DNA of 64,000 nt from an uncultured Victivallales bacterium (GCA_964387425.1 CAYLXP010000001.1:19452-83451); one strand, 5' to 3'. Shown: positions 789 to 52,152, counted from the stretch's first letter. A program made the numbers and translations. The notes: generated by a model not told the origin, from the sequence alone.

Positions 789-927
789 GGCAGCCGGACA
801 CAAACTGCTACCCTATGTTTGTCCGAAAGGGAATCTGCGCAGGTCTACCTACAGACCTGCGGGATGTTGGACATTATTCGTTATCGATGAATGGTAACCA
901 CGCGTTGCCGAAAGCGAGTTACACATT

Positions 928-3054: not shown

Positions 3055-3252
3055 CCACTGCAATGCCGAACACACTGCCTGTGTGGTACGCGTTCAGACC
3101 GCCGTCGCCCATCTGTGCCAACCAAAGGTGCAGATGCAGGCGACTGCGGCGAACTGGCCCAGCCAGCCGACCCTACAAAGATCTGCACGCGAAGACGAAA
3201 GGGACTTCTGTGCTGCAGACAGGCCCAGCGCCCACGATCGGGACGGTTGGTG

Positions 3253-4719
3253 TTATGCGGTGGTTGGCTGATGGGACAGCTGGCGCTTCTTTATGATCGC
3301 GACGGTGGCAATCAGGAGGAGCAGGCAGGCGGTGATTAAGGCGATGGCAATGACGTTTGGTTTTACCTTTCCGACCTGGAAGCGAAAGGTCTCTTTAACG
3401 GCCTGGCCCCCCTCCCCCAGGGATATTTCGGCGTAGTAGATACCGTCTTCTTCGTAGACCCAACCGACTTTGTGAATGTGACGCGGATTGGCCGTGGCCT
3501 CGAAGGGATGATTGCCTTCGCTCAGATCTTCACCATGCTGGTAGACACGGAAGGTCACGGCGCCATCATAGGGTACGTCGGTGGCGGTGTGTTTAACATA
3601 GAGGGCGAGATCGAGCGCTTTCTGCGCCGGAATCGGCCAGAAGGTGAACTGCAGTGTCCATGGTCCCGAATCGCGGAACTCCTCGAAGAGCGGCGCCTGC
3701 GGATAGTTCTCCTGGTAGCTGTAATGCGGGATGCCACGGATATGGTGGGCATGGGCTGCCGCCACGGTCATTAGCAAGGCAAGCACCACACCAGGCATGG
3801 ACCCGGATCTATGGTTTCGTTTGGACATGTTCAGGGTGAAGTCTATCGCATTATCGTCGCACACCTCAATACACCTCCCACAGTTATCGCACTCACCGCC
3901 AAGCGGCTTATGTGATGGATCCAGGTTATAGGGACAGGCCAAGTCACAGGCTCCGCAAGCCGTGCAAGCGTCGGGATCACGTTGCACGCGCAGTCTTCTG
4001 AACCGACCGAGCCAGGCCAATAGCGCCCCACCGGGGCAGAGGCATCTGCACCACAGGCGTTCGCACAGAATCAACTCACACAGAAGCAGTATACCGACAA
4101 AAGCCAACTCCAGCTTCATGAACTCTCCGGTCCATAGGTCGATCATCGCGTCAGAGATTATGCGTGGCGGATAGAATCCATAGAAGAATGGCACGGAGAA
4201 GAGCAGACAGGCAAGACAACCCAGCACGAGCAGAACATACTTCGGCAGGGCAGAGACGGGGATATCGATGAAGTGTACGCCGACATGCGCAAGCTTGCGT
4301 CGCCCCCCTCTCACAATCTCACCCAGTATTCCCATCGGACAGATCCAGCTACAGAATATGCGGCCACCGAATAGTATGCCGAGCGCCGGGAGCAATATCG
4401 ACAGCATCAGGGCGACAGAGAACCTGCGGGATGTCAGGATGCCGCTGGCCATCGCCAGGGGATCGCTGATACGCACCGGTCCCGCCTTGAATGACCACAG
4501 CCCGCCGGAGACGGTGATGGGTCTCCGATCCAAATGAGGCGACTCGCCGAGCGCGGTATCGATCAGGTGAAGCCCCGGATGCTTCTCGATCTCAAACTGT
4601 CCACCGTACTGCGATTTGTAGCGACGGTGCAGGTTGAACCCTGCGATCAGAAAGAGGGCAAGCAGGACCGCGATGCGGAGCAGGTGTCGCCATGGCGCAA
4701 TGTGTCGCCGGGATTTCAT
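3253..4719 (-). CDS. NapH/MauN/CcoG-family membrane polyferredoxin with extra C-terminal TM-flanked periplasmic domain
   Basis: 488 aa with multiple TM helices and the conserved CSWICPMG and CRCLCPGG motifs. Two ferredoxin motifs are present (CTACGACDLACP and CDNCGRCIEVC). The C-terminal ~180 aa start with the His-rich AAHAHHIRGIPHY and end in a TM helix. The start overlaps the upstream gene by 4 nt (ATGA). Confidence 0.75.
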   Translation of the reverse strand: MKSRRHIAPWRHLLRIAVLLALFLIAGFNLHRRYKSQYGGQFEIEKHPGLHLIDTALGESPHLDRRPITVSGGLWSFKAGPVRISDPLAMASGILTSRRFSVALMLSILLPALGILFGGRIFCSWICPMGILGEIVRGGRRKLAHVGVHFIDIPVSALPKYVLLVLGCLACLLFSVPFFYGFYPPRIISDAMIDLWTGEFMKLELAFVGILLLCELILCERLWCRCLCPGGALLAWLGRFRRLRVQRDPDACTACGACDLACPYNLDPSHKPLGGECDNCGRCIEVCDDNAIDFTLNMSKRNHRSGSMPGVVLALLMTVAAAHAHHIRGIPHYSYQENYPQAPLFEEFRDSGPWTLQFTFWPIPAQKALDLALYVKHTATDVPYDGAVTFRVYQHGEDLSEGNHPFEATANPRHIHKVGWVYEEDGIYYAEISLGEGGQAVKETFRFQVGKVKPNVIAIALITACLLLLIATVAIIKKRQLSHQPTTA

Positions 4720-5321
4720 GATAGCGCTGACTTTGGTTTCACGCGGATGGCCTGTGGATAGACGATGCAGGCCTTCTCACACAATCCGCACCCCACACAG
4801 GTGTCGGGGTCAACAACCGGGCGCTCCCACGTTAGCGCCTTAAGCGCTTTGCCCTTGAAGGGGCAAGCCTGTACGCAGGCCCCGCAGGCAAACCCGTTAT
4901 AGGAATTGCAGATGTTCTTATCGACGATGGCGAGGCCCATTTTGACGTTTGCCTGGATGTCGTCGCCACTATCGGACGGCACGGCCTTCAACGCACCCGT
5001 AGGGCAGGCTTGCGTACAGCGCATACAGAGAATGCAGGCCTTTTCGCGCAAGCGGAGGTAAGGGGCGCCGATGCCGTTCGTCGTGCGGTCGAATTTGATG
5101 CAGCCGTTCGGGCAGACATCGCCGCACTGCCCGCACCCGATGCAGCGCGAGAGGAATTCGTCCTCCGGCAGCGCCGCCGGGGGACGAATGACTGCATCCC
5201 GCCATTTGCGGGCGCGGGCCAAGACATTCCTGCGACTGCGGACCAACCATGCGGTAATGGCCGCGGCCGCGGCCGCCGAGAGTAGGCCCTCGAGAAGGCG
5301 TCGCCGGGTTATCCGATTCAT
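4716..5321 (-). CDS. napG: NapG-like periplasmic 4Fe-4S ferredoxin (Tat signal)
   Basis: 201 aa with a twin-arginine leader (MNRITRRRLLEGLLSAAAAAA). Four Cys clusters of the CxxCxxCxxxCP type are present (CIGCGQCGDVCP, CILCMRCTQACP, CGACVQACP, CVGCGLCEKAC). Lies 20 nt downstream of the NapA-like gene. Confidence 0.75.
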   Translation of the reverse strand: MNRITRRRLLEGLLSAAAAAAITAWLVRSRRNVLARARKWRDAVIRPPAALPEDEFLSRCIGCGQCGDVCPNGCIKFDRTTNGIGAPYLRLREKACILCMRCTQACPTGALKAVPSDSGDDIQANVKMGLAIVDKNICNSYNGFACGACVQACPFKGKALKALTWERPVVDPDTCVGCGLCEKACIVYPQAIRVKPKSALS

Positions 5322-5341
5322 GCTGTCAGCTTACCGTATCC

Positions 5342-8062
5342 TCAAATGCGTTCAATCCTCGCGGCAAGCTTCTTGAAATCAACCTGGCCGGAGACGGGAT
5401 CGTAAGCCCGGTGGCTCGTGGCATTCACAAGCCACTTGTTCTTCTTGGGGTCGGCGGAGTCCGCCACCGAGAGGTTCCAGGGGCTGAAGATATAGCCACG
5501 GGGGACCTCGTTTCGCGCGGGGCGCACCTTGGAGTTGATGCCACCCACGGAGACCCTGCCTTCATAGCTGCCGCGCCGAGTCACGATGCGAACCATGTCG
5601 CCATCCGCAACGCCCAGTTCTGCAGCATCCTCGGCATGGATCTCGACGAACTGCTCCGGGACAAGACGACGCGTGGTCGCTCCCCGAATCGTCTTGGACG
5701 CATGGAAGTGTTCGTAGACGATGCCGAGACCGAGCCAGAAGGGGTACTTGTCTTCCGGAACCGCATCCCACTTGCGGCCGAGGAAATCCTCGTCCGGCCA
5801 TTCCGGGGTGAGCGCCATGTCGCGCGCCTTGATCAGGACATCCTTGTGGTCGGAAGCGAAGTAGTTGGGATCGGTTCCCATCTTCTGCATGTCCGCGATG
5901 ACTTCATCCTTCTCGGTGTAGTCCTGGCGGCAGCACTTCATGTGCAGTTTGCCGTCCGGCTTGCGGAAGTTCCCGTAAGGCTTTTCGCCCCACTGCTCCT
6001 GGTCCATGTAGCGACGAGGGGTACCGCCATTCTTGGCATGGGTATAGGTGGGCGCCGGCCATTGGATCCCGCGGTGGCGGCGGATCTGCTCGTAGAGACC
6101 AATACCATCGCGCTCACGTACCTCAAGCAGACCGGTCATATCACAGTCCATACCTTTGCTGGCACGCACGATCTCTTCATAGACCTCTTCAGAGTCGTAG
6201 AGCTCGGGACCATCGGGGTGGAATTTCTTCTTCTTGTAGGGCCACATCTTCTTGACCTCTTCATCAGACATGCCCATGGCCTTGGCGATGGTCTTGCCCT
6301 TGTCGATGGCCAGGTCCAGGTCGGGGAGACACTTTTCAAAGCCGGGCGCGCCCTTGCCGACACCGTCGACAATGTTGAATCGACGCTCGGATGAGATGTA
6401 CGTTCCGCCCTGCCACTCGCCCCACGTCAGGGCCGGGAAGATGACATCGCCGTAGAGCAGGTTGGGGGCGTGCCGATAGATATCCTGCACCACCACAAAC
6501 ATCTTCTCGAGCGCGGGCCGGATGAGCGTGTTCAGGTCGGGCTGGTGGATGTGTGTTGTGTAGCAGTAGAACATGGCCTTCATGGGATCGAGCCCGTTGC
6601 GGTCCAGGGTCTCCTGGTCCATCAGGGCCCGTTCAAACTGCCCGACCATCATGCCGGGGTTCTTGCGTCCGGCAACGTCGATCAGGCGCTGCTCGGGGCA
6701 GTTCCAGGCCTTCGCGATCTGTGCGATCCCCTTCATATTGAGCTCCCCGCCGCCTGCGAGTCCCTGGTTGAACGGAAGACGCCCGGTGAGGCCACCGGTC
6801 AGTCGTTCGCCCATGGCATTGGGCTGGCCGGTCATGGAGAAGGGCCCACAGCCGGGACGACCGAGATCGCCTGTCAGGGCATGCAGATTGATGATCGAGA
6901 TCACGTTATGCTGCCCATGGATGTGCTGGTTGTAGCCGATGCCCCACATCGTGATGACGCCACCGGTTCCGCGGCGCTTGCCCTTACGGCTGGCATCGGC
7001 CCACTCGGAGGCGACTTTGCGAATTAGGGCTGGCTCGACCTGCGTGCGATCCGCGACCTGCTCGGGGGAATACTCTTCCTTGACCATTTTGATGTAGTCC
7101 TGCCAGCCGTTCACATTGGCTTTGAGGAAATCGTAGTCGATCACGTCCTCATGCTCGGTAACCAGGCAGTGCCCAATGGCGTTGAGACAGGAGATATCCC
7201 CATTAATGGTGGGGAAGTGATAGGAGTTCTCCGGATTGATGGACTCCAGGGCCTGTACGGAGCCCGTTCGCCGTGGGTCCGAAATGAGAGTTGGAATGCC
7301 ATTCTTGAGCTTGTGGTCTGCAGCACGCCAGAACACGATCGTGTGTGCGGCGCGCGGATTATGGCCCCAGAAGCTAATCATGTCTGCCTTCTCAATGTCA
7401 TCGTAGCAGAGCGGCGGGGTATCTGACCCGAAGGTGGCAAAATAGGCCGTCACCGCCGAGGTCATGCAGGTACGGGCGTTCGCTTCAATGGAGTTGGAGC
7501 CCAGGAGACCTTTGAGCATCTTGTTTTCGATCCACTGGGTCTCCACGGTAAGCTGCCCGGAACCGTACAAGCCGATGGAGTTTCCGCCCCATTTCTTGTG
7601 GATGGCTGCGATCTTCTCGGCGACAATGTGTTCGGCCTCTTCGTAGGTAACTTCCTCAAAGTCACTCTCCTTGAAGCTTCCCTTGGTCTTGGAAACGTGC
7701 CCGGAGATGGGGTCACTCATATCCTTACGGATGAGCACCTTTGTGAGACGGTCAATGTAGACGGGCTCGTCGGCATTCAAACCCTTGATGCACTGGATGC
7801 CCTTGTTGGTCGGATGCTGCTTATCCGGTACGACCCCAAGGATGCGACCAGAGTCGGCTTCGTACTTGATGACGGACCCACAGCCAACGCCGCAGTAAGG
7901 GCATTGCGCAAGACAGGTCTTGATGCGGGAACCGCTCCTGCCGGCCTCCGCCTTCAACGTTTCCGGCGCGAAGACCATACCGCCTAACCCGAGAGCGGCG
8001 GACCCTGCAACGGAGCCTTCCAGGAAGGCGCGACGCGACATATTGAAGCCTTTTGATTTCAT
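5342..8062 (-). CDS. napA: periplasmic molybdopterin (bis-MGD) oxidoreductase, NapA/Nas-type nitrate-reductase-like catalytic subunit
   Basis: 906 aa with a Tat leader (SRRAFLEGSVAGSAALGLGG). The N-terminal 4Fe-4S motif is CPYCGVGCG ... CIKG. A Mo-ligand Cys sits in the NapA/Nas-like context ANARTCMTSAV, and a GIQWP motif is present. An AGGAGAG Shine-Dalgarno lies upstream of ATG 8062. Confidence 0.8.
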   Translation of the reverse strand: MKSKGFNMSRRAFLEGSVAGSAALGLGGMVFAPETLKAEAGRSGSRIKTCLAQCPYCGVGCGSVIKYEADSGRILGVVPDKQHPTNKGIQCIKGLNADEPVYIDRLTKVLIRKDMSDPISGHVSKTKGSFKESDFEEVTYEEAEHIVAEKIAAIHKKWGGNSIGLYGSGQLTVETQWIENKMLKGLLGSNSIEANARTCMTSAVTAYFATFGSDTPPLCYDDIEKADMISFWGHNPRAAHTIVFWRAADHKLKNGIPTLISDPRRTGSVQALESINPENSYHFPTINGDISCLNAIGHCLVTEHEDVIDYDFLKANVNGWQDYIKMVKEEYSPEQVADRTQVEPALIRKVASEWADASRKGKRRGTGGVITMWGIGYNQHIHGQHNVISIINLHALTGDLGRPGCGPFSMTGQPNAMGERLTGGLTGRLPFNQGLAGGGELNMKGIAQIAKAWNCPEQRLIDVAGRKNPGMMVGQFERALMDQETLDRNGLDPMKAMFYCYTTHIHQPDLNTLIRPALEKMFVVVQDIYRHAPNLLYGDVIFPALTWGEWQGGTYISSERRFNIVDGVGKGAPGFEKCLPDLDLAIDKGKTIAKAMGMSDEEVKKMWPYKKKKFHPDGPELYDSEEVYEEIVRASKGMDCDMTGLLEVRERDGIGLYEQIRRHRGIQWPAPTYTHAKNGGTPRRYMDQEQWGEKPYGNFRKPDGKLHMKCCRQDYTEKDEVIADMQKMGTDPNYFASDHKDVLIKARDMALTPEWPDEDFLGRKWDAVPEDKYPFWLGLGIVYEHFHASKTIRGATTRRLVPEQFVEIHAEDAAELGVADGDMVRIVTRRGSYEGRVSVGGINSKVRPARNEVPRGYIFSPWNLSVADSADPKKNKWLVNATSHRAYDPVSGQVDFKKLAARIERI

Positions 8063-8108
8063 TGTATCTCTCCTATGTGAATTGGGATTCTGTTTTGCAA
8101 TTCTGTCA

Positions 8109-10679
8109 TTATAGATTCAGTTGACCTTCCTCGCGCAGATACTGAATCACGTCATTGATATCCTTCCCGGTCATTTCCACGACCCCGGCTCCCCCGCGGA
8201 TCATCGAACGCATCGTGGAGCCGTGCCCCAACGACATGGTGGCCTGCAGGTAGGAGTCGGTGGCGGCATCGAGGAACCTGGGGTTGAGCAGGCGTGGCGC
8301 AAACCCTTCCTCATTCTTGGCACCGTGGCACTGGGCGCACTGCTGATCATAGAGCAGAGCGCCGCGGGCAGCGGTGCCGAGGGCAAGTTTCGGGGTCTGC
8401 TTCGCGGTGTCTTCCTCGGAACGCAGGTAGCTGACAATGGAGCGGATTTCGTGTTCGGAAAGCTCGGTGAGAGATCCCAATCCATGTGCGAAGGAGCGCA
8501 TCTCGGTGCCAGAGCGACCATTGGCGATGGTGCCCTCAATGAAGCCGTCGCTAACGGTCGAGAGGAACCCGGGCCGTCCCACAGCAGGGCCCGAGCCCCC
8601 TCCCCCGAATTCACCATGGCACTGCGCACAGTTCCTGGCAAAGACCTCGCGTCCCAGAGCCACGTCGCCCTGTGTCACCGCCTTCCCGATGGTGTCGAAC
8701 GGCACACTCTGGAGGGTACGCATGTAGGCGACGATCTCGTCAATTTCGTGTTCGGTGAACGAGGCAAAGCTGCCGGTTCCCTTGAGATTGGAGCGCATCG
8801 CTGTGCCCATGCGCCCGTAGCTGATGGACTCGCGCAGGAACTGATCGTCAACGGCATTGAGGAAATCATGTCCGCCGATGGCAGGCCCGATCAGTCCCCG
8901 TCCCCCTTCCCCATGGCAGGGTGCGCAGGTACGCTCGAAGTTGATCTTGCCCTTGCTTTCGCTGGCCACGGCAACGCCCTTCCGTGAGCGCACTTCGCCG
9001 GCGGGGAAGCTGCGCAGGTAGGCGAGGATACCGCCCAGTTCGCGGGCGGAAAGCTGCGACCATCCGCCCATGGCGGTTCCGTCACGGCCCGCGGTGATGG
9101 TCTCGTGCATAAAGGCGTCAGAGGCAAGGGCGCGGAATTCCGCCGTGTTCAGAGAGGGGCCGATGCCGCCTTCAGCATGCATGCCATGGCACGACCCACA
9201 ACGACTGCGGAAGATGGGGTGCCCGCGCTTTGCCGCATTCGGCTGCTTGGCTTCCGCCTGGACCGCGGCAAGATCGGGCGGCTGGTTACGGTTACGCCCC
9301 AGGTAGGCAACGATGTCCTTACGCTCGTTGTCTCGAAGGTAGTGCCACTTCGGCATGGCAGTACCTTCCCGGCCATCGACAATGGTCTTGGTCAGAAAAG
9401 CGTCCGTGGCGAAGGTCAGGAACTCGGGGCTCGAGAGCGTGGGACCGATCATGTCCATTTCATAGTCGCCCCCAATACCATGGCAGCCTGCGCAGCGACT
9501 CTCGTAACGAACCTTGCCATAGTCGGCACGGCCGACGTAGTCCGGATCGGGTTCCGGGGTCGGCGCGTGCAGGGAGAGAATGTGGCGGCTGACAGCATCG
9601 ATCTGTTCGGCGGAGAGCCCGCCGGACTTGCCCCAGTTGGGCATGATCGAACTGTCGGACTGCGTCACGATGTGCTTCACGAAATCGAGCGTAACAATGG
9701 ACTGAAAACCATTCCCCGAGAGTGAAGGACCTTGCTTTTCGTGTTCACGCAAGGGAGCACCTTCACCGTTCTTGCCGTGGCAGGCGGCACAGAACTCGCG
9801 GTAAATGTGATCGCCGGTAGGCTGAGGCAGATGCTTCTCGAAATCCTGCAGTGCATCTGGAACCTTGCGGGTCTGGAAGCTCTTCATGTAGACCGCGAGC
9901 GCATGCGCCTCGGTGTCACTGAACTGGTTATCCGGCATCACACTCTCGCCGGGCTCGAGGCTTGGGGTCTTCACGGCTTCAAACAGGTAGGCCAGGTTTA
10001 CGTTGTGATCAAACTGCCCGAGCAGGTCTTTGCTGTTCTTGCCGTGGGGCGACTTGAGGTGGAACGAAGCGTCGCCAATGGTGGTTAGATCAGGCCCCAG
10101 GAATCCACCTACACGGTCGATCTTATGGCAGCCAAGACAGCCATTATCGACAAAGAGAGAGCGCCCGAGCTGCAGGGTCGCAAGCTGCGGCAGGCTCTCG
10201 GCGTGGTGGCAGCGCAGACAGTTAGCCTGTGTCAGGTCGCCGTGCAGACGCAAGGCTTCCCAAAACTTGACTTCGTTGGCGTGTGCATCCTTACGGTTGG
10301 TGGCAAGCCCCTGCCCGTCATGACAGATGGTACACCCCACCTCACGGATATCGTGGGTATCCAGGAGTCCGTGGGGATGATAGCGGAGAGGCTGCGGTGC
10401 GTCTGCCATGCGGGGATCTTCCATTCCCACGTGGCACGAAACGCAACGGTCAGTGCGGCCCAGTTCCGGCAGAACGAACTGACGCATCTGGATGGGGTAG
10501 CTTTCCGCCGCGGCCTTCTCGGCCGGGGTTTCTGCCAACTCGATGAGCTTTTCGCGGTAGCGTTTCTGGTGGCGGCGGTACTCCATCATGCGGGTTTCGC
10601 GCATGGCCGCAAACACCAGCAAGACAATGGCCAACGTGCTGGCTCCGAGGATCAATCTCTTGAAGTATCCATTATTCAT
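8109..10679 (-). CDS. membrane-anchored decahaem cytochrome c (N-terminal tetrahaem module + six class-I cytochrome c domains)
   Basis: Ten CxxCH motifs were counted by eye: CVSCH, CTICH, CLRCH, CLGCH, CAACH, CAGCH, CGSCH, CAPCH, CAQCH, CAQCH. The preferred start is ATG 10679 (MNNGYFKRLILGASTLAIVLLVFAAM, a TM anchor), 19 nt after the cyt b stop. The track ORF extends to 10751. Confidence 0.85.
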   Translation of the reverse strand: MNNGYFKRLILGASTLAIVLLVFAAMRETRMMEYRRHQKRYREKLIELAETPAEKAAAESYPIQMRQFVLPELGRTDRCVSCHVGMEDPRMADAPQPLRYHPHGLLDTHDIREVGCTICHDGQGLATNRKDAHANEVKFWEALRLHGDLTQANCLRCHHAESLPQLATLQLGRSLFVDNGCLGCHKIDRVGGFLGPDLTTIGDASFHLKSPHGKNSKDLLGQFDHNVNLAYLFEAVKTPSLEPGESVMPDNQFSDTEAHALAVYMKSFQTRKVPDALQDFEKHLPQPTGDHIYREFCAACHGKNGEGAPLREHEKQGPSLSGNGFQSIVTLDFVKHIVTQSDSSIMPNWGKSGGLSAEQIDAVSRHILSLHAPTPEPDPDYVGRADYGKVRYESRCAGCHGIGGDYEMDMIGPTLSSPEFLTFATDAFLTKTIVDGREGTAMPKWHYLRDNERKDIVAYLGRNRNQPPDLAAVQAEAKQPNAAKRGHPIFRSRCGSCHGMHAEGGIGPSLNTAEFRALASDAFMHETITAGRDGTAMGGWSQLSARELGGILAYLRSFPAGEVRSRKGVAVASESKGKINFERTCAPCHGEGGRGLIGPAIGGHDFLNAVDDQFLRESISYGRMGTAMRSNLKGTGSFASFTEHEIDEIVAYMRTLQSVPFDTIGKAVTQGDVALGREVFARNCAQCHGEFGGGGSGPAVGRPGFLSTVSDGFIEGTIANGRSGTEMRSFAHGLGSLTELSEHEIRSIVSYLRSEEDTAKQTPKLALGTAARGALLYDQQCAQCHGAKNEEGFAPRLLNPRFLDAATDSYLQATMSLGHGSTMRSMIRGGAGVVEMTGKDINDVIQYLREEGQLNL

Positions 10680-10698
10680 GTTGTGCTTCCTAACGGCG

Positions 10699-12258
10699 CT
10701 AGTGTGTCGGCCAGAGTGAGGGCCACCAGAAGAAGTCCCAGTTCGGCCCACGGTGGACCAGGGCGAAATAGGTAAGAATCACGAAACTCACGAGGAAGCA
10801 GGTGAAGAACACGAGGACCGCTCTGCGCGTTGATCGCGTTACCCCCAGGGTTCCGAGGGTGAGGAGTGTCAGGAATGTGGCCAGGACCGTGCCGGGGTTG
10901 ACCGCCGTGATCAAGAGCTGCGGGCAATCCGGCATCCAGTCCCGAATCCATCCGGCATTGATCGTAAACGCCAGTAGGCCGACAACGGCGGCGGCCATAA
11001 TAACGGTCATGATTGTCGCGAGGCGACGCTCTCCGGGTGTTCCGAACCAGCGACCAGTACCGCCTTCACGCCGATCGAGATAAGGCACCAGCATCAGCAT
11101 CAGAACCGTGATGCCGGGCAGCACCATGCCGCCCGTGAATGCGGAGTAGGAGATAATCTCCTGCATCGCCAGGAAGTACCATGGTGCCTTGGCGGGATTC
11201 TCCGGTACCGCCGGATTTGCCAACTCCTTGAGCGGGGCATCGGCAACCAAGGCCAAGGCGAGCATCGCTACCAATAGGATAGCGGCGATGGCTATCTCGG
11301 CGCGCAAGACATGCGGCCAGCTCAGCACGGTGCGCTCGGGGCCGCGGTTGACGGCGGCCGTACGGTCTTTGACCAGGCACATCAGACCGTAAGTCTTGGC
11401 CTCGACGGGCAGGAAAGCCTCCTCGGCCAAGGCATCCGTTGGGGTGCCGGCAAGCTCTTCGTCCCGGATATCCTCCGGGCGCGAAAGGCCGCCATCCTTG
11501 CGGATGCGCCAGAAGTGGGCGGCGAGGAACAACACCATCGTAATGGGCAGGACAATGCAGTGGCCCCAGTAGAAGCGCAGCAATGCAGACTCGCCAACGC
11601 TATTGGAGCCCAGCATGATCAGCTTCTGGAACCCACCGAGATCGGCGTACTTCGTAATACCCATGGCGTCGGTTACCTCGGACGGGCTTCCGGCGATATT
11701 GGCGCCAATCGTGATCGCCCAGTAGGCAAGCTGGTCCCACGGCAGACAGTAGCCGGTAAAGGCCAGGGCGAGAGTCAGGACAAAGAGAATAACGCCAATG
11801 ACCCAGTTGAACTCGCGTGGCTTCTTATAAGAATTCGTATAGAAGACGCGGATCATGTGCAGGAATACGGCCACGACCATGGCGTAGGCGGCCCAGCGAT
11901 GCAGGTTGCGAATAATCCGGCCGCCCGGCACCACGAAGTGGATGTTCTTAACCGACTCATAGGCCCCATCGACTGAAGGTACATAGTGAACCATCAGGAC
12001 GGCGCCTGAGACACATAGCATCAGAAAGAGGATCCCGGCGGCGACGCCCAATCCCATGGTGAAACTGGGACGCAGGCTCCAGCGATGGGTACGCACGCTG
12101 TGAATATGGAGAAAGACGTTACCGAAGACAGACTGCGAGCGGCCACGTGTGGTCTCGATCGGGCTGCGACGGCTTACGCTGCCTGCCACGTTCTTCGGGA
12201 GCTCACGCAGGTTCTTCAGCAGTGCGGCGAACCCGGTTGCCTGGGAGATCTCACTCAT
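10699..12258 (-). CDS. cytochrome b subunit of a Rieske/cytochrome b complex (b6-like N-terminal part fused to subunit-IV-like part)
   Basis: 519 aa polytopic membrane protein. Haem-ligand His pairs lie in helices (NVFLHIHSVRTH, NLHRWAAYAMVVAVFLHMIRVFY, HFWRIRKDGG). The start overlaps the Rieske stop by 4 nt. Confidence 0.85.
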   Translation of the reverse strand: MSEISQATGFAALLKNLRELPKNVAGSVSRRSPIETTRGRSQSVFGNVFLHIHSVRTHRWSLRPSFTMGLGVAAGILFLMLCVSGAVLMVHYVPSVDGAYESVKNIHFVVPGGRIIRNLHRWAAYAMVVAVFLHMIRVFYTNSYKKPREFNWVIGVILFVLTLALAFTGYCLPWDQLAYWAITIGANIAGSPSEVTDAMGITKYADLGGFQKLIMLGSNSVGESALLRFYWGHCIVLPITMVLFLAAHFWRIRKDGGLSRPEDIRDEELAGTPTDALAEEAFLPVEAKTYGLMCLVKDRTAAVNRGPERTVLSWPHVLRAEIAIAAILLVAMLALALVADAPLKELANPAVPENPAKAPWYFLAMQEIISYSAFTGGMVLPGITVLMLMLVPYLDRREGGTGRWFGTPGERRLATIMTVIMAAAVVGLLAFTINAGWIRDWMPDCPQLLITAVNPGTVLATFLTLLTLGTLGVTRSTRRAVLVFFTCFLVSFVILTYFALVHRGPNWDFFWWPSLWPTH

Positions 12259-12734
12259 ACAGCCACCTTTGTCCCCATGGGAACCGTAACGCCCCGATCC
12301 ACCATCAGTTGTCCGCTCGGCAACGTCGAGACCTGGTACCAGTCCAGTGAACGGGGTGCCGGTGCCTTGGTGACTTTGCCCTCGAGCGTGAACTTCGATC
12401 CATGACAGGGGCAGTCGAACCGCTGCTCACCATCGTTATAGGTCACGATGCACCCCAGGTGGGTGCAGACCAGCGAGATGGCATACATGCCTTCACCATC
12501 ACGGAACACCGCCACCTGCTCGTCGTCAAAGACCCTCACAGAGCCCAGCGGGAAATCCTGGGGAGGACCAATCTTGAACTGCGCCGAAGGATCGGGCAGG
12601 ACGCGCGGTTTGAGGCCCACAAAGGACCCGGCGCCGGCAAGCCCGACGGCCCCCAGAAATGCAGGAAGCCAGCCTTTCGCTGTGAGGAACTCGCGCCGAT
12701 TCAAGTTCTCTCTCTTCTTTTCTTCAACTGCCAT
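12255..12734 (-). CDS. Rieske 2Fe-2S subunit (Tat-like leader)
   Basis: Rieske boxes CTHLGCIV and CPCHGSKF are present, with the leader NRREFLTAKGWLPAFLGAVGLAGAGS. The preferred start is ATG 12734 (MAVEEKK) behind a GGAGGGAG Shine-Dalgarno. The track ORF extends to 12833, inside the upstream gene. Confidence 0.85.
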   Translation of the reverse strand: MAVEEKKRENLNRREFLTAKGWLPAFLGAVGLAGAGSFVGLKPRVLPDPSAQFKIGPPQDFPLGSVRVFDDEQVAVFRDGEGMYAISLVCTHLGCIVTYNDGEQRFDCPCHGSKFTLEGKVTKAPAPRSLDWYQVSTLPSGQLMVDRGVTVPMGTKVAV

Positions 12735-12738
12735 GGTT

Positions 12739-14688
12739 TCAACTCCCTCCTCTTCGTGAATGCTCCGGTCGAGGTTGCTCCTTGAAGCAGAACCGTTCCA
12801 TTGTGATTGCGTCTGCCGGGCAGCGTTCGGCACAGAGGCCGCATCGAATACACCGGGATTCGTCTTTGATGATCATGGCGGCGCCATCCTGATCCATGTC
12901 GCCAAGTACATTGGTGATCAACGTCTGGAGCGTTTCGTCCTGTTGGTCCACCTTGTCCAGGGAAACAAGCTTGAGGCAGAGTTCCGGGCAGACGTCAGCG
13001 CATCCGCCACACAGGACACATCGGTCCCCGTTGAAGATCGTGTTGACGCCGCAATCCAGGCAGCGGGACGCTTCACGCAAGGCGTCGTGCGCGTCATAGC
13101 CCTGCTCGACCACCCTTGTCATGTCTTTACGCTGTTCCGGATCAAGCGTGGGCACCTCATGGCGTGAAATCGACTCGTAGCCTTTCTCGCGCTTGTAGTC
13201 TTCGATGTCGAAATGCAGTTCGGTTGTACGGAAGTCGGCTGTCCGCCCGGTGACGTAAGAGAGAACGCCTCGCGCCGCTTTCTTTCCTGACTGCACCGCA
13301 TCAATAATCAGGCGCGGCCCCGTCTGCAGGTCGCCGGCCACAAAAACGCCGTCCGCAGTCGTCATCAGCGATTCCGGATCGTATTTCGGATAGTGACGCG
13401 CATCCAGCGCTACGCCATGGCGCTCCTCCAGGAAGCCAAGATCACAGACCTGCCCAATGGCAATCAGGACCGTGTCACATTCAATAACCTGGGCATCGGT
13501 CTCATCGAAGACAGGACTGAACCTGCCATCTGCATCAAAGAGGCTAGTCACCGCGGCAAAGCGTACGCCGGTGACCCTGCCGTCAGCATCGCGCAGGATC
13601 TCCTGCGGGCCAACGCTGTTGTGTCGGATAATCCCCTCCTCTTCGCCCTCACGGATATCCATAGGGTCGGCCAGCATCTGTTCACGACTCTCCAGGCAGC
13701 AGAGGTGAACTTCGCCGTCAAGGGATTGGCGCGCGGCCACACTGCTCACATCTTCATAGGCCATGTGGACGGCCGTCTGCTCTGGCGCCACCATCTCGAT
13801 GTCCATTGGGCCGGCCGTACGCCAGGCGCTACGGGCGACATCATAGGAAACGCTGCCGCCGCCAATGACCACGATCTTCTTTCCCAGGGTAACGCTACGC
13901 CCCAGCGCCACGTCCCGAAGGAAATCGATTCCCGGCAGGACTCCCGGACCTTCTACGCCCGGAATCGGGAGTCCACGGCTCTTCTTGGCGCCCACCGAGA
14001 GTACAACCGCCGCGTGCTGCTCGCGCAATTCATCCAGCGTAATGTCTTCACCAACGGTTGTGTTGCACCTGATCTCGACACCCATGGCCTCGATGGAGGC
14101 CACCTCGGCTTGAATCAGGTTGCGTGGCAGCCGATATTCAGGAACGCCAACATAGAGCATACCGGCCGCACGGTCCTCCAATTCGTAGATAACGGACTCG
14201 AACCCGAACAGGGCCAGGTCATGGGCACACGCCAAGCCGGCCGGACCGGCACCGACGATGGCGATCGTTGATGTTCGCGCATCCGAATCGGGACCTTTGC
14301 TGTCGACATTCAATACGCTGCGCAGCTCTTCTCTGCCTTCGCACTGGCGCTCTGCCAGGCGGTTCGTCAGATACCTGTGCAACTCCTCAGGTGGCGCGGC
14401 TTCGGCACCGTAACTGGTGGTCACAAAGCGTTTGAGAGCACGAATGGAAATGGGCTCGTCGATCGTGCCCCGGCGGCACGCCATCTCGCAAGGGGCGGCG
14501 CAGACGCGACCACAGATGGAGGCCAGGGGATTGGGGCCGCGCGCGATGAGATAAGCTTCTTCGAAATCCCCGGCCGCAATGGCGCGGACGTATCCCCGGG
14601 CATCGGTGTTAACGGGGCAAGCTGACTGGCAGGGAATATTCTCCTGCCAGTAAGCCAGGTCTGGTATCCGTAGTTTTAGATGCTCCAC
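12739..14688 (-). CDS. GltD/NfnB/SudA-like NAD(P)H-dependent flavo-iron-sulfur oxidoreductase with C-terminal 2x[4Fe-4S] ferredoxin domain
   Basis: 649 aa. The N-terminal Cys clusters are typical of the glutamate-synthase small-subunit family ([27 protein letters not shown]). A dinucleotide fold is present ([18 protein letters not shown]). The C-terminal motifs are [12 protein letters not shown] and [12 protein letters not shown]. There is no signal peptide. Starts at GTG. Confidence 0.8.
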
Positions 14689-16232
14689 GTCTGTCCTTCG
14701 ACGCCTTCTGGACCAAGGGTCTCCCAGTGCCTGCCGTCAACGGCCAGCAAGGTAGCGGCTTCCTTTGGTCCCGCTTCTCCGGGCTTGTAGCTGTAGATGG
14801 GAATCTTGTGATTGTGCTCGAGCTCTTCGAGAATTGGCGTCACGAATTCCCACGCGTGTTCCACTTCATCGCTTCTCGCGTAGAGGGTGGGATCACCCCG
14901 CATGCAGTCGATTAACAAGCGCTCGTACGCATCGGCAGGCTCCTGGTTAAAGGCATTCGCGTACCCGAAGTCCATGAAGACATTGCTGAGACCGATGCCA
15001 TCTCCCGGAGTCTTGCAGGCGAACTTCAGACAGATTCCCTCATTCGGCTGAATGCGCAGAGTCAGGACATTCGGATTGAGCTGTGAACAGGCGCTTCGCT
15101 GGCCCAGCAAGCAGAGAGGCACCGGCCGGAAATGGATGGCGATTTCAGTCACGCGGGACGGAAGGTGTTTACCGGCCCTGACGTAGAACGGCACACCTTG
15201 CCAGCGCCAGTTATCAATCATGATGCGCATGGCAACATAGGTCGGGGTGCGGGAATCCGGGTCGACGCCCTCTTCCTCCCGGAAGCCTTCATACTGGGAG
15301 ATGATCACGTTCTTACGAACATCCTCTCCCGTAACGGCACGCAAAGATCTCATGACCTTCACCTTCTCGTCACGAATGGGTTCCGCACGGAACGACACCG
15401 GCTGTTCCATCGCACAAAGCGCCAGGACTTCCAACAGGTGATTCTGGATGAAGTCCCGAATGATGCCCGCTTCATCATAGAAACTCCCGCGGCCTTCGAT
15501 ACCGATCGACTCTGCCGCCGTGATCTGCACATGGTCTACGTAATCACGGTTCCAGAGTGGCTCGAAGATGGCGTTTGCAAAACGGAACACGAGGATGTTC
15601 TGGACCGTCTCTTTTCCAAGATAGTGATCGATACGATAGGTTTGACTCTCATCCAGGTACTTTGAGATGTGCTTATTCAGGGCATGCGCAGAGGCTGAAT
15701 CACGGCCGAATGGCTTTTCCACGATGACCCTGGACCAGGCATCATCGTCGGGGTCGAACACCAGCCCTGCCTCGCCAATGCCGGTAATGATGTGCTCGTA
15801 GACGCTGGGTGGTGTCGATAGATAGAACAGACGGTTGCGCACGCCGCCCATATCGGCACAGGTTTCTTCCAACATCTCCGCGAGGCGCTGGTAGGCCTCG
15901 GGGTCGTCGTAGTTCCCCTGGCAGTAGTCAATGCGAGGTGCCAGGTCCATCCAGATCAGGTCATCGACCTGCTCCTTCTGCGAGAACTCCTTGATGCTGG
16001 ACAGAAGCAGGTCCCGAAACTCCTGCCCATCCTTCTTGCTGCGGGCGAATCCGAGGATTCGGAATTTCTCGGGGAGAAGCTGATCCTTGGCGAGGTCATA
16101 CAGCGCCGGCACGAGCTTACGTCGGGTCAGATCTCCCGAGGCACCAAACACGACCATTGTGCAGGGATCGGCTCTCTGTACGTCTGCGGTACCGTGGTCT
16201 TTGCAGACCGTCGTCGGTTCAATATGGATCAT
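14676..16232 (-). CDS. zwf: glucose-6-phosphate 1-dehydrogenase
   Basis: 518 aa with the NADP-binding motif [11 protein letters not shown] and the active-site signature RIDHYLGKE. An AAGGAG Shine-Dalgarno lies upstream. The 3' end overlaps the GltD-like gene by 13 nt. Confidence 0.95.
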
Positions 16233-16316: not shown

Positions 16317-16430
16317 CCCCTCGGGCCAAAAAAAATCTCTCTCCCGTGTTCCATTCGCTTGTAATCCTCACCCACGCGGTGAGCCAATGGCCGAACGGGC
16401 TCGAGATGATTTGCCTTTCCGGTGAATAGA

Positions 16431-16443
16431 GACTAAATTAGTC
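16431..16443. promoter_or_regulatory. perfect palindrome GACTAAaTTAGTC, candidate Rrf2-family operator overlapping a -10-like TAAATT
   Basis: Lies 31 nt upstream of the rrf2 ATG. It fits the GACT-N5-AGTC core of the IscR type-1 site as I remember it. A possible -35 TTGCCT (16411-16416) lies 17 nt upstream of TAAATT. Confidence 0.45.
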
Positions 16444-16473
16444 CCTGTTGGAAAGCAAGGAGGAAAGTTGGGT

Positions 16474-19353: not shown

Positions 19354-19410
19354 AACCTGTTATTCCTGGTTGGTTACCTTGCCGGACTGGCCCGGCTGTT
19401 CTCAAGTCGT

Positions 19411-52011: not shown

Positions 52012-52066
52012 TATTGGGATTGACAAAACGGCGCGCCTTGGTATCTTGCGCCCTTCACGAGACCAT

Positions 52067-52141: not shown

Positions 52142-52152
52142 GATTTTGAGAA

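Follow-up and report, generated by a model that had tools for sequence, protein, structure and literature searches.

Organization of the locus

The window, i.e. the whole stretch of DNA that was analysed, has a length of 64 kb and contains eight minus-strand genes between positions 3253 and 16232 (Table 1). The gene coordinates are those of the ORF list of the window, and all eight families were confirmed with Pfam and NCBIfam. The gene zwf overlaps the gene of the GltD-like flavoprotein by 13 nt, which is separated by 4 nt from the Rieske gene. The Rieske gene in turn overlaps the cytochrome b gene by 4 nt. Gaps of 19, 46 and 20 nt lie between the genes for cytochrome b and the decahaem cytochrome c, the decahaem cytochrome c and the molybdoenzyme, and the molybdoenzyme and the NapG-like protein, respectively, and the napG-like and napH-like genes overlap by 4 nt. 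All overlaps and gaps given in the initial annotation were reproduced in the ORF list. No terminator-like site was found on the minus strand in any intergenic gap of the operon, and three independently assembled metagenome contigs of the same organism have the identical gene order. The operon is one co-oriented, tightly packed unit. Upstream of it a molybdenum-cofactor operon and the gene of a divergent Rrf2 regulator are situated, both of which were absent from the initial annotation.

Table 1. Position of genes and sequence features in the 64-kb window
Feature	Position	Strand	Basis
NapH-like membrane polyferredoxin, 488 aa	3253-4719	-	Pfam Fer4_5, NCBIfam NapH/MauN
NapG-like periplasmic four-cluster ferredoxin, Tat signal RRRLLEG	4716-5321	-	NCBIfam NapG
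Tat-exported Mo-bisPGD enzyme (molybdoenzyme), 906 aa	5342-8062	-	Pfam Molybdop_Fe4S4, Molybdopterin, Molydop_binding
Membrane-anchored decahaem cytochrome c	8109-10679	-	ten CxxCH motifs, six Pfam Cytochrome_CBB3 stretches
Fused cytochrome b6 + subunit-IV-like protein, 519 aa	10699-12258	-	Pfam Cytochrome_B, NCBIfam ExtP, ExtQ
Rieske 2Fe-2S protein, 159 aa, Tat motif NRREFL, membrane anchor	12255-12734	-	Pfam Rieske
Cytoplasmic GltD/NfnB-like flavo-FeS NAD(H) oxidoreductase (predicted), 649 aa	12739-14688	-	Pfam, NCBIfam
Glucose-6-phosphate dehydrogenase, zwf	14676-16232	-	NCBIfam TIGR00871, 618.6 bits (cut-off 400.6)
12-1-12 palindrome, GGGACTAATTTAGTCTC core, candidate Rrf2 operator	16425-16449	.	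divergent promoter region
Divergent Rrf2-family regulator, Fe-S-type cysteine triad C-x5-CC-x5-C	16468-16878	+	ORF, NCBIfam rrf2_super
bis-MGD molybdenum-cofactor operon: moeA, moaA, moaC, MOSC-Mog fusion, mobB-mobA fusion	16855-21596	-	Pfam

The molybdoenzyme and its NapGH-like partners

The molybdoenzyme had been described as NapA-type. NapA provides its best solved-structure matches. The motifs EANAR[MT]CMTSAV and TGQPNAMGER do not vary across the family, and neither do the Mo-ligand Cys-Met and the Arg known from nitrate reductases. The SeCys/Cys-His pair of formate dehydrogenases is not present. With the NapA model of NCBIfam it reached 301 bits at a cut-off of 904, and it stayed below the cut-off of every curated nitrate-reductase model of this collection. 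The sequences form a cluster isolated from the next relatives, which was monophyletic in 100 of 100 bootstraps and has a mean identity of about 72% within the clade and of about 32% to both NapA and NasA. The tree gives no firm placing of this clade relative to Nap and Nas. Canonical NapA was rejected on the grounds of the low score and the separate, tight clade. By its sequence the molybdoenzyme is a new, distinct clade within the Nap/Nas radiation, and it is probably a nitrate reductase. Since every curated nitrate-reductase model failed and the placing in the tree is not firm, we can only infer nitrate as the substrate, which we consider somewhat better than an even chance.

The NapG-like and NapH-like pair is a constant companion of this clade, and in almost all loci of the family with a downstream flank in the data napG-like directly follows the molybdoenzyme gene. 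The NapG-like protein is 36% identical to E. coli NapG (131.6 bits with the NCBIfam NapG model, cut-off 269) and the NapH-like protein 27% identical to E. coli NapH (112.7 bits with NapH/MauN, cut-off 213). The latter is predicted to consist of a NapH core, followed by a periplasmic domain of some 150 aa in the C-terminal part and a last transmembrane helix. Its C-terminal 189 aa have no match in Pfam, and the extension is kept in four other loci. The pair could constitute a second, non-electrogenic quinol route, or it could provide the iron-sulfur and membrane-anchor subunits of the molybdoenzyme.

Searching the 64-kb window by tblastn with the E. coli proteins gave no homologue of NapB, NapC and NapD, as had been claimed. 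NapF had also been noted as missing; the only matches to E. coli NapF were in the napG-like gene and, at a weak level, in the part of the GltD-like gene that codes for the ferredoxin domain.

The Rieske/cytochrome b complex and the decahaem cytochrome c

The Rieske protein contains the cluster motifs CTHLGC and CPCHGS, and its best solved structure is 9rk4 (Kuste4569; E 8.8e-26, 43% identity over 108 residues). The best solved structures for the cytochrome b are cytochrome b6, and the protein is matched by NCBIfam ExtP with 231.7 bits and also by ExtQ. Of the nine predicted transmembrane helices five belong to the subunit-IV-like part. The spacing of His120/134 and of His233/248 is that of b6, and the Qo motif APWY and the N-terminal His51 are invariant. 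TMGLG is found in place of CxGG, and the haem cn cysteine is absent.

For the decahaem cytochrome c we used the start giving the 856-aa version, as gene callers do in relatives. An N-terminal helix (one transmembrane) is followed by four closely spaced haems and then by six class I (CBB3-type) domains. These domains are 30-36% identical to the dihaem cytochrome c preceding the molybdoenzyme gene in loci without Rieske/cytochrome b. Tat motifs are present in the molybdoenzyme, the NapG-like and the Rieske protein, and a single anchor helix in the decahaem cytochrome c.

The GltD/NfnB-like flavoprotein

In the flavoprotein a Fer4_20 domain is combined with domains for FAD and NAD and, at the C-terminus, a 2x[4Fe-4S] domain. 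Neither a transmembrane helix nor a signal peptide was predicted. Among solved structures it is best matched by NfnA from the Bfu-type NfnABC (9bov, E 4e-82). The NADPH-binding YRR motif is replaced by LES, and the nucleotide domain carries an insertion. As the YRR motif is lacking, use of NAD(H) rather than NADP(H) is predicted.

Wherever a Rieske/cytochrome b complex neighbours a molybdoenzyme of this clade the flavoprotein gene adjoins it. It was found only where Rieske/cytochrome b genes occur and is missing from the ten molybdoenzyme loci lacking them. The block of GltD-like, Rieske/cytochrome b and multihaem c genes also stands beside genes of type II molybdoenzymes exported by Tat, which are accompanied by beta, EB_dh and NarJ genes; NapGH is not present at these loci. 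The flavoprotein is therefore the partner of the Rieske/cytochrome b complex and not of NapH. Physical docking on cytochrome b, inferred from gene order alone, is likely.

Related loci

The order GltD-like, Rieske, cytochrome b, multihaem c, molybdoenzyme, NapG and NapH is kept in Gemmatimonadales, Phycisphaeraceae, Calditrichaceae, Planctomycetaceae and Kiritimatiellia, so that the seven-gene core is found in Gemmatimonadota, Calditrichota, two classes of Planctomycetota and Kiritimatiellia. As this order is conserved across phyla, the clustering goes beyond chance. The cultured Photobacterium frigidiphilum JCM 12947 also possesses an orthologue of the molybdoenzyme. Relatives without Rieske/cytochrome b carry a NapC/NirT-type quinol dehydrogenase and a dihaem cytochrome c instead, which bears out the notion that the Rieske/cytochrome b complex and the decahaem cytochrome c take the place of the usual Nap partners. 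One locus of the latter kind adjoins narL (292 bits, cut-off 250) and a narX/narQ-like kinase gene; such an adjacency was seen in only 1 of 10 loci. The module of GltD-like, Rieske and cytochrome b genes is accompanied by Fe-S Rrf2 regulators and YtfE/RIC-like hemerythrins, which are typical companions of nitrosative stress.

zwf and the divergent regulator

An alternative start of zwf 25 codons later, at 16157 (493-aa call), is possible. The gene is present at the equivalent position in the contigs of the same organism and absent there in all other loci examined, including relatives with 80-91% identical proteins. From this comparison zwf appears to be a lineage-specific passenger inserted behind the conserved Rrf2 operator. 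It would be a recent insertion behind the operon promoter in one lineage only, co-regulated with the other genes and not part of the machine.

The Rrf2 regulator scored 107.4 bits with rrf2_super (cut-off 73.3) and below the cut-offs of the NCBIfam models for NsrR, IscR and RirA. An Rrf2 gene is adjacent in six other loci. The palindrome in the divergent promoter region is unique in the 64-kb window, with 0.04 matches expected by chance, and its core GGGACTAATTTAGTCTC recurs between the Rrf2 and the flavoprotein gene in one of these loci (L099). The Fe-S Rrf2 regulator may control the operon via this conserved palindrome. The molybdenum-cofactor operon is also found in L099 and in two of the same-organism contigs. 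The window also carries sulfatase genes and a phosphoglucomutase gene.

Comparison with known systems

A close likeness is to the complexes Kuste4569-4574 and Kustd1480-1485 of the anammox bacterium Kuenenia stuttgartiensis (Kartal et al. 2013; Hauser et al. 2025, PMC12954380), which are likewise encoded in one operon. Both have a Rieske protein, a cytochrome b of the b6 type whose subunit-IV part has five helices, and, in place of c1 or f, a multihaem cytochrome c. Common to both are also an FAD/FeS subunit resembling NfnB/GltD and, on the periplasmic side, a terminal enzyme acting on a high-potential nitrogen oxide, here presumably nitrate. The Rieske protein is closer to Kuste4569 than to any other solved structure. 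The structural neighbour of the anammox flavoprotein Kuste4570 is also Bfu-type NfnA (PMC12954380), and NfnA (9bov/9bp5) is common to both. The helix count of nine, with five in the subunit-IV-like part, and the invariant N-terminal His agree with what has been modelled for the anammox complexes (PMC12954380). The initial annotation had regarded a GltD-like subunit attached to Rieske/cytochrome b as a matter mainly of anammox bacteria; the kinship holds, with Kuste4569 and NfnA as best structural matches, but the module is not confined to them, and its wide distribution had already been recorded, with no function assigned (PMC5600118). In Kuenenia the terminal enzyme is an HAO-like octahaem protein, and here a Mo-bisPGD protein with NapGH-like partners takes this role. 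The host is a heterotroph of Kiritimatiellia/Verrucomicrobiota-like type and not an anammox bacterium. The analogy is imperfect, because the cytochrome b, which is fused, no longer has the cysteine for haem cn, which is kept by the split cytochrome b of the anammox type, and the flavoprotein has lost YRR and carries an insertion. The function of the NAD(P)-linked anammox complexes is itself still a hypothesis (PMC12954380).

The initial annotation was not aware of a link of the module to a Nap-type reductase and zwf. For the supply of a periplasmic nitrate reductase by a Rieske/cytochrome b complex, Caldithrix, Campylobacter and haloarchaea already provide precedents. In the nap cluster of Caldithrix abyssi (Cabys_2564-2557; Kublanov et al. 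2017, PMC5317091) NapB and NapC are missing as well, NapG and NapH are present, and a Rieske/cytochrome b pair has been suggested to be the quinol oxidase. An NAD-linked flavoprotein is not reported for it, the carrier is the tetrahaem NapM instead of a decahaem protein (PMC5317091), and its NapA is by published description a Desulfovibrio-type Nap, on that description set apart from the clade found here. In Campylobacter jejuni and Wolinella succinogenes it has been shown experimentally that a Rieske/cytochrome bc complex and not NapC feeds Nap, and that this respiration still requires NapGH (Garg et al. 2018, PMC6195509). Their qcr genes serve several acceptors and are unlinked to nap, in contrast to the linked operon here, and they possess canonical NapA and NapB and neither a cytoplasmic flavoprotein nor a polyhaem wire. 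In haloarchaea the genes of pNar, a molybdenum nitrate reductase on the periplasmic side, are clustered with those of the Rieske protein NarB and the nine-helix dihaem cytochrome b NarC; coupling by a Q cycle has been suggested (PMC7754194). This system, with a type II NarG-like enzyme, archaeal hosts and neither multihaem cytochrome c nor flavoprotein, is nearest to the type II-linked sister arrangement of L090 and L091.

By its invariant APWY motif and its best NCBIfam matches, ExtP and ExtQ, the cytochrome b belongs to the APWY clade (Kao and Hunte 2014, PMC4122944), which is subfamily G/G' of Dibrova et al. (2017, PMC5600118) and includes the Geobacter Cbc/ExtOPQ and Pcm bc-like complexes. 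No complex of the clade has been characterised, and reverse running has been proposed (PMC4122944). Subfamily G/G' co-occurs with NAD(P)-binding FeS oxidoreductases, and "large conserved operons ... of an unknown function" are noted for it (PMC5600118). The published accounts consulted name neither molybdoenzyme partners nor the operon described here.

Proposed electron transfer chain

Our preferred reading, to which we assign a probability of roughly 0.4, is that the locus encodes a dedicated electron-transfer chain by which nitrate, or a comparable oxyanion of high potential, is reduced in the periplasm, with electron bifurcation. The chain probably forms a supercomplex. Quinol would be oxidised at the Qo site of the APWY-type Rieske/cytochrome b complex, and one electron would pass via the high-potential Rieske centre and the membrane-anchored decahaem cytochrome c to the Tat-exported Mo-bisPGD enzyme. 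On the cytoplasmic side the two b haems would be wired to the flavoprotein with its FAD and four FeS clusters, so that the second electron could be driven to NAD+ at the expense of the strongly positive nitrate branch, as proposed for Kuste4569-4574. This bifurcation, the first of the two hypotheses of the initial annotation, is plausible. The direction from quinol to the reductase has good odds, and for the flavoprotein we tentatively put NAD+ reduction before NADH oxidation, itself a fully conceivable course. Quinol-driven NAD+ reduction is physiologically odd, since the hosts look heterotrophic, judging by the sulfatases and phosphoglucomutase mentioned above, and are rarely short of NADH.

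The same wiring evidence would equally serve a chain in which the flavoprotein oxidises NADH, or NADPH from G6PDH, into the b haems and then n-side quinone, with a Q cycle leading to nitrate. The product of the locus would then be an NAD(P)H:nitrate oxidoreductase that is self-contained and translocates protons. Electrons run downhill from NADH to the b haems, and heterotrophic hosts have NADH to spare. The supply by G6PDH, put forward in the initial annotation, could draw on the 13-nt overlap of zwf with the flavoprotein gene, their common promoter and operator, and the phosphoglucomutase elsewhere in the window. It turned out to be weak: zwf is missing from all other loci, even those of the 80-91% identical relatives, so that G6PDH cannot be the designed donor of the module, and LES for YRR predicts NADH, whereas a typical Zwf would be expected to make NADPH. 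Furthermore, complex I or NDH-2 already do such work, and it would be left unexplained why the flavoprotein is tied only to Rieske/cytochrome b with its own high-potential terminal enzyme. We regard this reading as somewhat less likely than the bifurcating one. Irrespective of direction, the enzyme could reduce chlorate, perchlorate, selenate or iodate. Such conservation of a tight separate clade (about 72% within against about 32% to Nap/Nas) beside canonical Nap/Nas, below every curated nitrate-reductase cut-off, could mean a distinct substrate, and NapA itself reduces chlorate and perchlorate (PMC12769810). The intact nitrate-reductase active-site motifs speak against this, and narXL beside one locus, the Rrf2 regulators and the RIC-like hemerythrins point to nitrogen oxides. 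Neither chlorite dismutase nor another substrate-specific accessory gene was found among the annotated flanking genes of the loci, and a different substrate is unlikely.

Reverse operation has been proposed for the APWY clade with reference to the Geobacter p-cresol methylhydroxylase cluster (PMC4122944). The molybdoenzyme would then be a dehydrogenase, whose electrons pass via the c haems, the Rieske protein and a pmf-driven reversed Q cycle to quinone and NAD+. The type II enzymes of the sister arrangement share a family with nitrite oxidoreductase and ethylbenzene dehydrogenase, but the active site here is of the nitrate-reductase type and lacks the formate dehydrogenase pair. Apart from formate we know of no oxidative substrate in the Nap/Nas radiation. 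The NapC/NirT and narXL contexts of relatives are typical of reductases and the hosts appear heterotrophic, which makes this direction very improbable. Still less credit is given to the view that the genes are mere neighbours, the flavoprotein being a soluble enzyme and Rieske/cytochrome b serving general respiration. The association of the subunits is deduced from gene order, and with so few loci sampled the linkage could look stronger than it is. However, the order is kept across five phyla with genes overlapping or nearly abutting, and the flavoprotein gene stays with Rieske/cytochrome b when the terminal enzyme is swapped. Moreover, the homologous anammox proteins are reportedly expressed as complexes in which the oxidoreductase subunit occurs together with cytochrome b (de Almeida et al. 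2016, as cited in PMC5600118).

Organisation of the operon and its upstream region

The eight co-oriented genes of the minus-strand operon had been described in the initial annotation together with the lengths of their overlaps and gaps. The ORF list and the translations gave the same figures for all junctions (7/7), and the family assignments of all eight genes were backed by Pfam and NCBIfam models. The operon is real and conserved. The identical gene order was found on three independent metagenome contigs of the same organism (L087-L089). No terminator-like site was present in the coding-strand intergenic gaps, and the promoter and terminator scans were uninformative, giving fewer sites than shuffled sequence. 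Directly upstream, on the same strand, lies a molybdenum-cofactor operon with the full bis-MGD set, which had previously gone unmentioned.

Features of the respiratory operon and the region upstream of it (window coordinates)
Feature	Position	Strand	Description
NapH-like	3253-4719	minus	488 aa
NapG-like	4716-5321	minus	201 aa
Molybdoenzyme	5342-8062	minus	906 aa
Multihaem cytochrome c	8109-10679	minus	856 aa; start as in relatives' gene calls
Cytochrome b	10699-12258	minus	519 aa
Rieske	12255-12734	minus	159 aa; start as in relatives' gene calls
GltD-like flavoprotein	12739-14688	minus	649 aa
zwf	14676-16232	minus	518 aa
Palindrome GGGACTAATTTAGTCTC, 12-1-12	16425-16449		candidate Rrf2 operator, beside divergent Rrf2 gene
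Rrf2-family regulator	16468-16878	plus (divergent)	between cofactor operon and zwf
Molybdenum-cofactor operon	16855-21596	minus	moeA, moaA, moaC, MOSC-Mog fusion, mobB-mobA fusion

NapB, NapC and NapD had been reported as missing. This was borne out by tblastn of the 64 kb with E. coli queries, in which these three proteins gave no match below E = 0.01; for NapD, a short and divergent protein, absence by this method is less certain. Matches to the E. coli Nap queries were confined to the NapA-, NapG- and NapH-like genes. We considered the mobBA-zwf gap as a place for napD, but its minus-strand ORFs look spurious and the real gene there is the plus-strand Rrf2 regulator.

One comparison locus (L093 8851-20001) seems to hold a degraded or misassembled copy of the operon. 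Its flavoprotein lacks the N-terminal end, part of the split cytochrome b is gone, small ORFs on the opposite strand have been inserted and NapG is down to 74 aa.

The molybdoenzyme belongs to a separate clade of the nitrate-reductase radiation

The molybdoenzyme carries a Tat signal, the N-terminal CxxCxxxC...C motif for a [4Fe-4S] cluster, the Cys-Met pair of the Mo ligand and the active-site Arg, as expected of NapA. SRRAFLEGS, C54/C57/C61/C91, C199-M200 and R420 are invariant across 23 family members and align with the E. coli NapA residues; EANAR[MT]CMTSAV and TGQPNAMGER are likewise invariant in the family. The closest solved structures are NapA proteins (E 3e-68), with which ARTCMTSAV and the active-site Arg align. 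The NapA equivalog models scored far below their cut-offs (NF010055, 301 bits against 904; TIGR01706, 283 bits against 930), and Fdh-alpha and NasA models scored the protein about equally low.

In a rough neighbour-joining tree with FdhF as outgroup, 19 NasA/NarB sequences and few NapA references (E. coli, Cupriavidus and Cereibacter NapA and one Bacteroidota NapA-like protein), the family was monophyletic in 100/100 bootstraps and fell outside both NapA and Nas. Its sister group in this tree was Nap in 29/100 bootstraps and Nas in 1/100, and its mean identity is about 32% to Nap as to Nas. The assignment as a NapA-type enzyme therefore had to be given up, since the protein scores below the NapA cut-offs and lies outside the NapA clade. 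We assign the family to a third clade inside the nitrate-reductase radiation, with nitrate as putative substrate.

The clade is set off from its next relatives by a sharp gap in score. In an exhaustive search of 1.8 billion cluster representatives the scores fell from 979 and 724 bits to 518 and 425 and then, among full-length proteins, to less than 300. Relatives with about 55-94% identity occur in Verrucomicrobia, Omnitrophica, Myxococcota, Hydrogenedentota and many Proteobacteria. The genome-collection scan gave at least 15 true family loci among the matches listed, most matches being NasA and NarB, so that frequencies of the loci are not estimable from it. No family member was found in the protein search of a plasmid collection, where the nearest proteins are assimilatory nitrate reductases at about 29% identity. 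Two cluster representatives, P0243 and P0245 (43% and 40% identity, 835 and 680 aa), fall between the family and most Nap, Nas and Fdh proteins and may form an intermediate clade.

Hints of nitrate come from the gene context, namely narXL beside one locus and Rrf2 and RIC-like genes nearby. The narXL pair was found in L008 (6367-8946), an operon without Rieske/cytochrome b in a gammaproteobacterial MAG; narL, which reaches 292 bits (cut-off 250), and the gene for a narX/narQ-like kinase of full length are divergent from the operon. None of the other family loci has this adjacency (1/10 loci). It is the only direct hint of nitrate regulation that we found. Searching the family flanks for nitrogen-cycle and chlorite dismutase genes additionally gave only genes of the order of a sodium:solute symporter and NapH-like fusions with a YHS domain.

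The NapG- and NapH-like proteins

NapG and NapH were the best models for the two downstream genes, with 131.6 bits against a cut-off of 269 and 112.7 bits against 213, respectively. The architecture of the former fits a Tat-exported four-cluster ferredoxin and that of the latter a four-helix membrane protein with 4Fe-4S clusters on the cytoplasmic side. Residues 300-488 of the NapH-like protein (window 3256-3822) make up a periplasmic domain (about 150 aa) and a closing transmembrane helix; this C-terminal region gave no Pfam match. The extension is conserved in several phyla, and in Haliangium (1070 aa) much longer tails are fused to it.

L013 and L019 have, close by, a separate gene for a NapH-like protein with a YHS domain. 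In L001 (11734-14700) a gene for a 988-aa secreted protein with an HExxH motif is inserted after NapH. This gene, seen in L001-L004, was considered as an extra subunit; the window has no equivalent of it, and it probably has nothing to do with the operon.

Two gene arrangements and the Rieske/cytochrome b complex

The linkage of a GltD-like gene with Rieske/cytochrome b and the molybdoenzyme, for which a search of public genomes had been proposed, recurs across several phyla. The gene order is [Rrf2], GltD-like, Rieske, cytochrome b, multihaem c, molybdoenzyme, NapG, NapH, and it was found in Gemmatimonadales (L006), Phycisphaeraceae (L013), Calditrichaceae (L017) and Planctomycetaceae (L019) as well as in Kiritimatiellia/Verrucomicrobiota relatives (L001-L004, L092, L098, L099). 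The second arrangement consists of a dihaem class I cytochrome c, the molybdoenzyme, NapG, NapH and more NapG-/NapH-like copies, often together with a NapC/NirT-type cytochrome; among the loci listed it contains no Rieske, cytochrome b or GltD-like gene. Its hosts are Haliangium, Gallionellaceae, several Gamma- and Alphaproteobacteria, Sericytochromatia and the cultured Photobacterium frigidiphilum.

The cytochrome c of the Rieske/cytochrome b loci usually has ten haems. That of the window has ten CxxCH motifs and is anchored by a single helix at the N-terminus, and its six class I domains are homologous to the dihaem c partner of the other loci. From this homology and the two arrangements it follows that Rieske/cytochrome b and decahaem c take the functional slot of NapC/NirT and dihaem c. 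Filling this slot is the signature of a reductase that would be fed by quinol.

The closest solved structure for the Rieske protein is 9rk4 (E 8.8e-26, 43% identity over 108 residues), which ranks above all b6f Rieske proteins; 9rk4 is Kuste4569, the Rieske protein of the anammox bacterium Kuenenia stuttgartiensis (PMC12954380). Both cluster motifs, CTHLGC and CPCHGS, are present. Cytochrome b has its haem ligands (His120/134, His233/248) in b6 spacing and cytochrome b6 as closest solved structures, and the Qo motif APWY is invariant in 8 orthologues. Nine helices are predicted, five of them in the subunit-IV-like half, and the anammox proteins have likewise been modelled with five helices in this half (PMC12954380). 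An invariant N-terminal His inside an FLHxHS motif could be the counterpart of the extra b-haem ligand proposed for anammox Kuste4571. Judged by its sequence, the Rieske/cytochrome b part of the operon is of the anammox kind. In contrast to the anammox complex, the cytochrome b of the window is fused and lacks the CxGG motif that typifies split b6-type members, with TMGLG where CxGG would attach haem cn covalently. Fused forms losing CxGG have been described by Dibrova et al. (PMC5600118).

The Kiritimatiellia contig L092 (GCA_030745755.1) has a second, different NAD-linked Rieske/cytochrome b cluster (1-9973) directly upstream of the Nap-like one. Its cytochrome b is split, carries WCMGG and is accompanied by subunit IV; the cluster further encodes a cytochrome c with 8 haems, a flavoprotein of the YRR type and a HEAT-repeat protein. 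It is preceded by a NarJ-like gene, with which a type II molybdoenzyme cluster probably ends.

The flavoprotein and the exchange of terminal enzymes

As in the anammox type, an NfnB/GltD-like FAD/FeS subunit is encoded within the Rieske/cytochrome b operon, together with multihaem c and a terminal enzyme. The closest structure for this flavoprotein is NfnA (9bov) of Bfu-type NfnABC, which is also given as structural neighbour of the anammox flavoprotein Kuste4570 (PMC12954380). In all 8 orthologues linked to fused cytochrome b the NADPH-binding YRR is replaced by LES/LEN with an insertion. YRR is kept in NfnA and in the second flavoprotein of L092, which goes with the split cytochrome b; the comparison set was made up of sequences other than those of anammox bacteria. 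In Rossmann folds, preference for NAD over NADP is classically set by an acidic residue in which strand beta-2 ends. Because such a residue replaces YRR, the flavoprotein is predicted to use NADH rather than NADPH.

Homologues of the flavoprotein at 52-56% identity are very numerous. The block [Rrf2], GltD-like, Rieske, cytochrome b, multihaem c also precedes another terminal enzyme in an Acidobacteriia contig (L090), in 'Abyssobacteria' SURF_5 (L091) and in a third metagenome locus. Here the terminal enzyme is a Tat-exported alpha subunit of the type II DMSO-reductase family (TIGR03479, 1187 bits against a cut-off of 985), whose gene is followed by genes for beta, an EB_dh-type gamma and NarJ. 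Two of the type II-linked loci have a hemerythrin gene, and the L090 copy, which was scanned, is YtfE/RIC-like. In L092 both kinds of cluster stand in tandem. Since the same block occurs with type II terminal enzymes, the flavoprotein gene tracks Rieske/cytochrome b and not NapGH. The common denominator of the flavoprotein loci is a dedicated periplasmic terminal enzyme, and the context points to nitrogen oxides.

zwf and the upstream regulator

The zwf product is a full-length match to its family model (TIGR00871, 618.6 bits against a cut-off of 400.6). At the equivalent position zwf was found in none of the other loci examined. In L001-L004 (91% identity) the flavoprotein gene is preceded by an IS30-like transposase end, in L098 (85%) unrelated opposite-strand genes are found there, and L099 (80%) has the layout of the window minus zwf, that is cofactor genes, divergent Rrf2 and then the flavoprotein gene. 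The cofactor operon of L099 additionally contains a MOT1-family molybdate transporter. The transposase end of L001 (1-141), missing from the window, directly adjoins the flavoprotein gene; L002 and L004, two of these four contigs, start just downstream of it.

The Rrf2-family regulator was also absent from the initial annotation. It matches the superfamily model (107.4 bits against 73.3), with NsrR, IscR, RirA and SUF-regulator models remaining under their cut-offs, and it has a cysteine cluster C-x5-CC-x5-C in the window, L099, L090 and L091. NsrR and IscR bind Fe-S through such clusters. The palindrome GGGACTAATTTAGTCTC is unique in the window, with 0.04 chance matches expected, and is a candidate Rrf2 operator. 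Its core GGACTAATTTAGTC recurs in L099 (9845-9857), a relative at 80% protein identity, between Rrf2 and the flavoprotein gene; none of the distant loci has it, the palindrome being restricted to the window's own strain and L099.

From the absence of zwf elsewhere, the L099 layout and the shared palindrome it follows that zwf was inserted downstream of an existing regulated promoter. The gene is probably co-transcribed and, through the 13-nt overlap, translationally coupled with the flavoprotein gene. The proposed NADPH-fed route from G6PDH is weak, as zwf is missing from every other locus examined; zwf is a passenger outside the conserved machine and idiosyncratic to this lineage. By analogy with E. 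coli, in which SoxRS induces zwf, a co-regulated NADPH supply under nitrosative stress would be a plausible reason for its presence.

Proposed electron flow

The molybdoenzyme, the NapG-like protein and the Rieske protein have Tat signals, the decahaem c is anchored and the flavoprotein is cytoplasmic. With this topology, quinol would be oxidised at the Qo site of Rieske/cytochrome b and one electron would pass from the Rieske centre through the ten haems to the molybdoenzyme and to nitrate. The NapGH-like pair might provide a second quinol route or serve as iron-sulfur and anchor subunits. The b-haem branch would connect to the flavoprotein.

We considered three directions for this branch. 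The favoured one is bifurcation to NAD+, to which we give a probability of about 0.4, because the flavoprotein is found only with Rieske/cytochrome b having its own very high-potential acceptor, which is what obligatorily coupled bifurcation needs. Nitrate reduction (about +420 mV) would then pay for the reduction of NAD+ (-320 mV) directly from quinol without reversed complex I; with ubiquinol, as opposed to menaquinol, bifurcation would be endergonic. Nearly as likely is the entry of electrons from NADH into the b-haem branch; a donor role of NADH better suits heterotrophic hosts, and sulfatases and phosphoglucomutase are encoded in the window. The least likely direction, since the molybdoenzyme is of the nitrate-reductase type, is that the complex runs in reverse. 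Kao and Hunte (PMC4122944) suggested this for the APWY clade, to which the cytochrome b would belong by its Qo motif.

Beyond bifurcation in this operon, we put forward more tentatively, and as rather unlikely, that NAD-linked Rieske/cytochrome b is a general, horizontally mobile module for quinone-based electron bifurcation with interchangeable periplasmic high-potential terminal enzymes, and not a peculiarity of anammox. The enzymes exchanged would be the Nap/Nas-related clade, type II pNar/Nxr-like and HAO-like enzymes. Among the sampled loci the module occurs in Verrucomicrobiota/Kiritimatiellia, Planctomycetota, Gemmatimonadota, Calditrichota, Acidobacteriota and 'Abyssobacteria'.

Precedents and significance

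In C. jejuni and W. succinogenes it has been shown experimentally that Rieske/cytochrome b feeds the periplasmic nitrate reductase, the role of NapGH being unclear in Campylobacter (PMC6195509). Further precedents for Rieske/cytochrome b feeding a periplasmic nitrate reductase are the nap cluster of Caldithrix (PMC5317091) and the haloarchaeal pNar with NarB and NarC (PMC7754194). According to Dibrova et al. [quoted passage not shown] The literature search, which extended to works other than ten Brink et al. 2013, returned no paper in which this operon, the clade of its molybdoenzyme or an exchange of terminal enzymes is described. The operon is of a kind already known, and the molybdoenzyme clade is unnamed.

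The idea of bifurcation originates from the anammox NAD(P)-linked Rieske/cytochrome b, where flavoprotein binding and quinol-driven NAD(P)+ reduction are still a hypothesis. It has been hypothesised for anammox since 2013, and the hosts are slow-growing and genetically intractable. The locus generalises this puzzle: the same kind of complex, with recognisable sequence changes, is conserved in many ordinary phyla, and in every case a periplasmic reductase of very high potential is encoded along with it. The comparative pattern, that is the allowed terminal enzymes, the presence of haem cn and YRR versus LES at the nucleotide site, can be used as evidence, and the choice of organisms and heterologous constructs for testing the bifurcation hypothesis becomes wider.

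The molybdoenzyme clade is large and tight and comprises periplasmic Mo-bisPGD enzymes, for which nitrogen-cycle annotation says only 'molybdopterin oxidoreductase'. If the clade reduces nitrate, marker-gene surveys based on napA and narG miss it. With a member in the cultured Photobacterium frigidiphilum JCM 12947, encoded at about 214.1-216.8 kb of NZ_PYMJ01000007.1, the substrate is directly testable.

Other genes in the window

A gene for a TonB-dependent receptor (928-3054, plus strand) is convergent on the 3' end of the operon, and its position is kept in L001 and L002. A cluster for type II secretion or a type IV pilus lies at 42.5-49.3 kb. It is followed at 49293-58161 by genes for phosphoglucomutase, two sulfatases and a DUF6259 protein, which fit a Kiritimatiellia-like degrader of sulfated polysaccharides.
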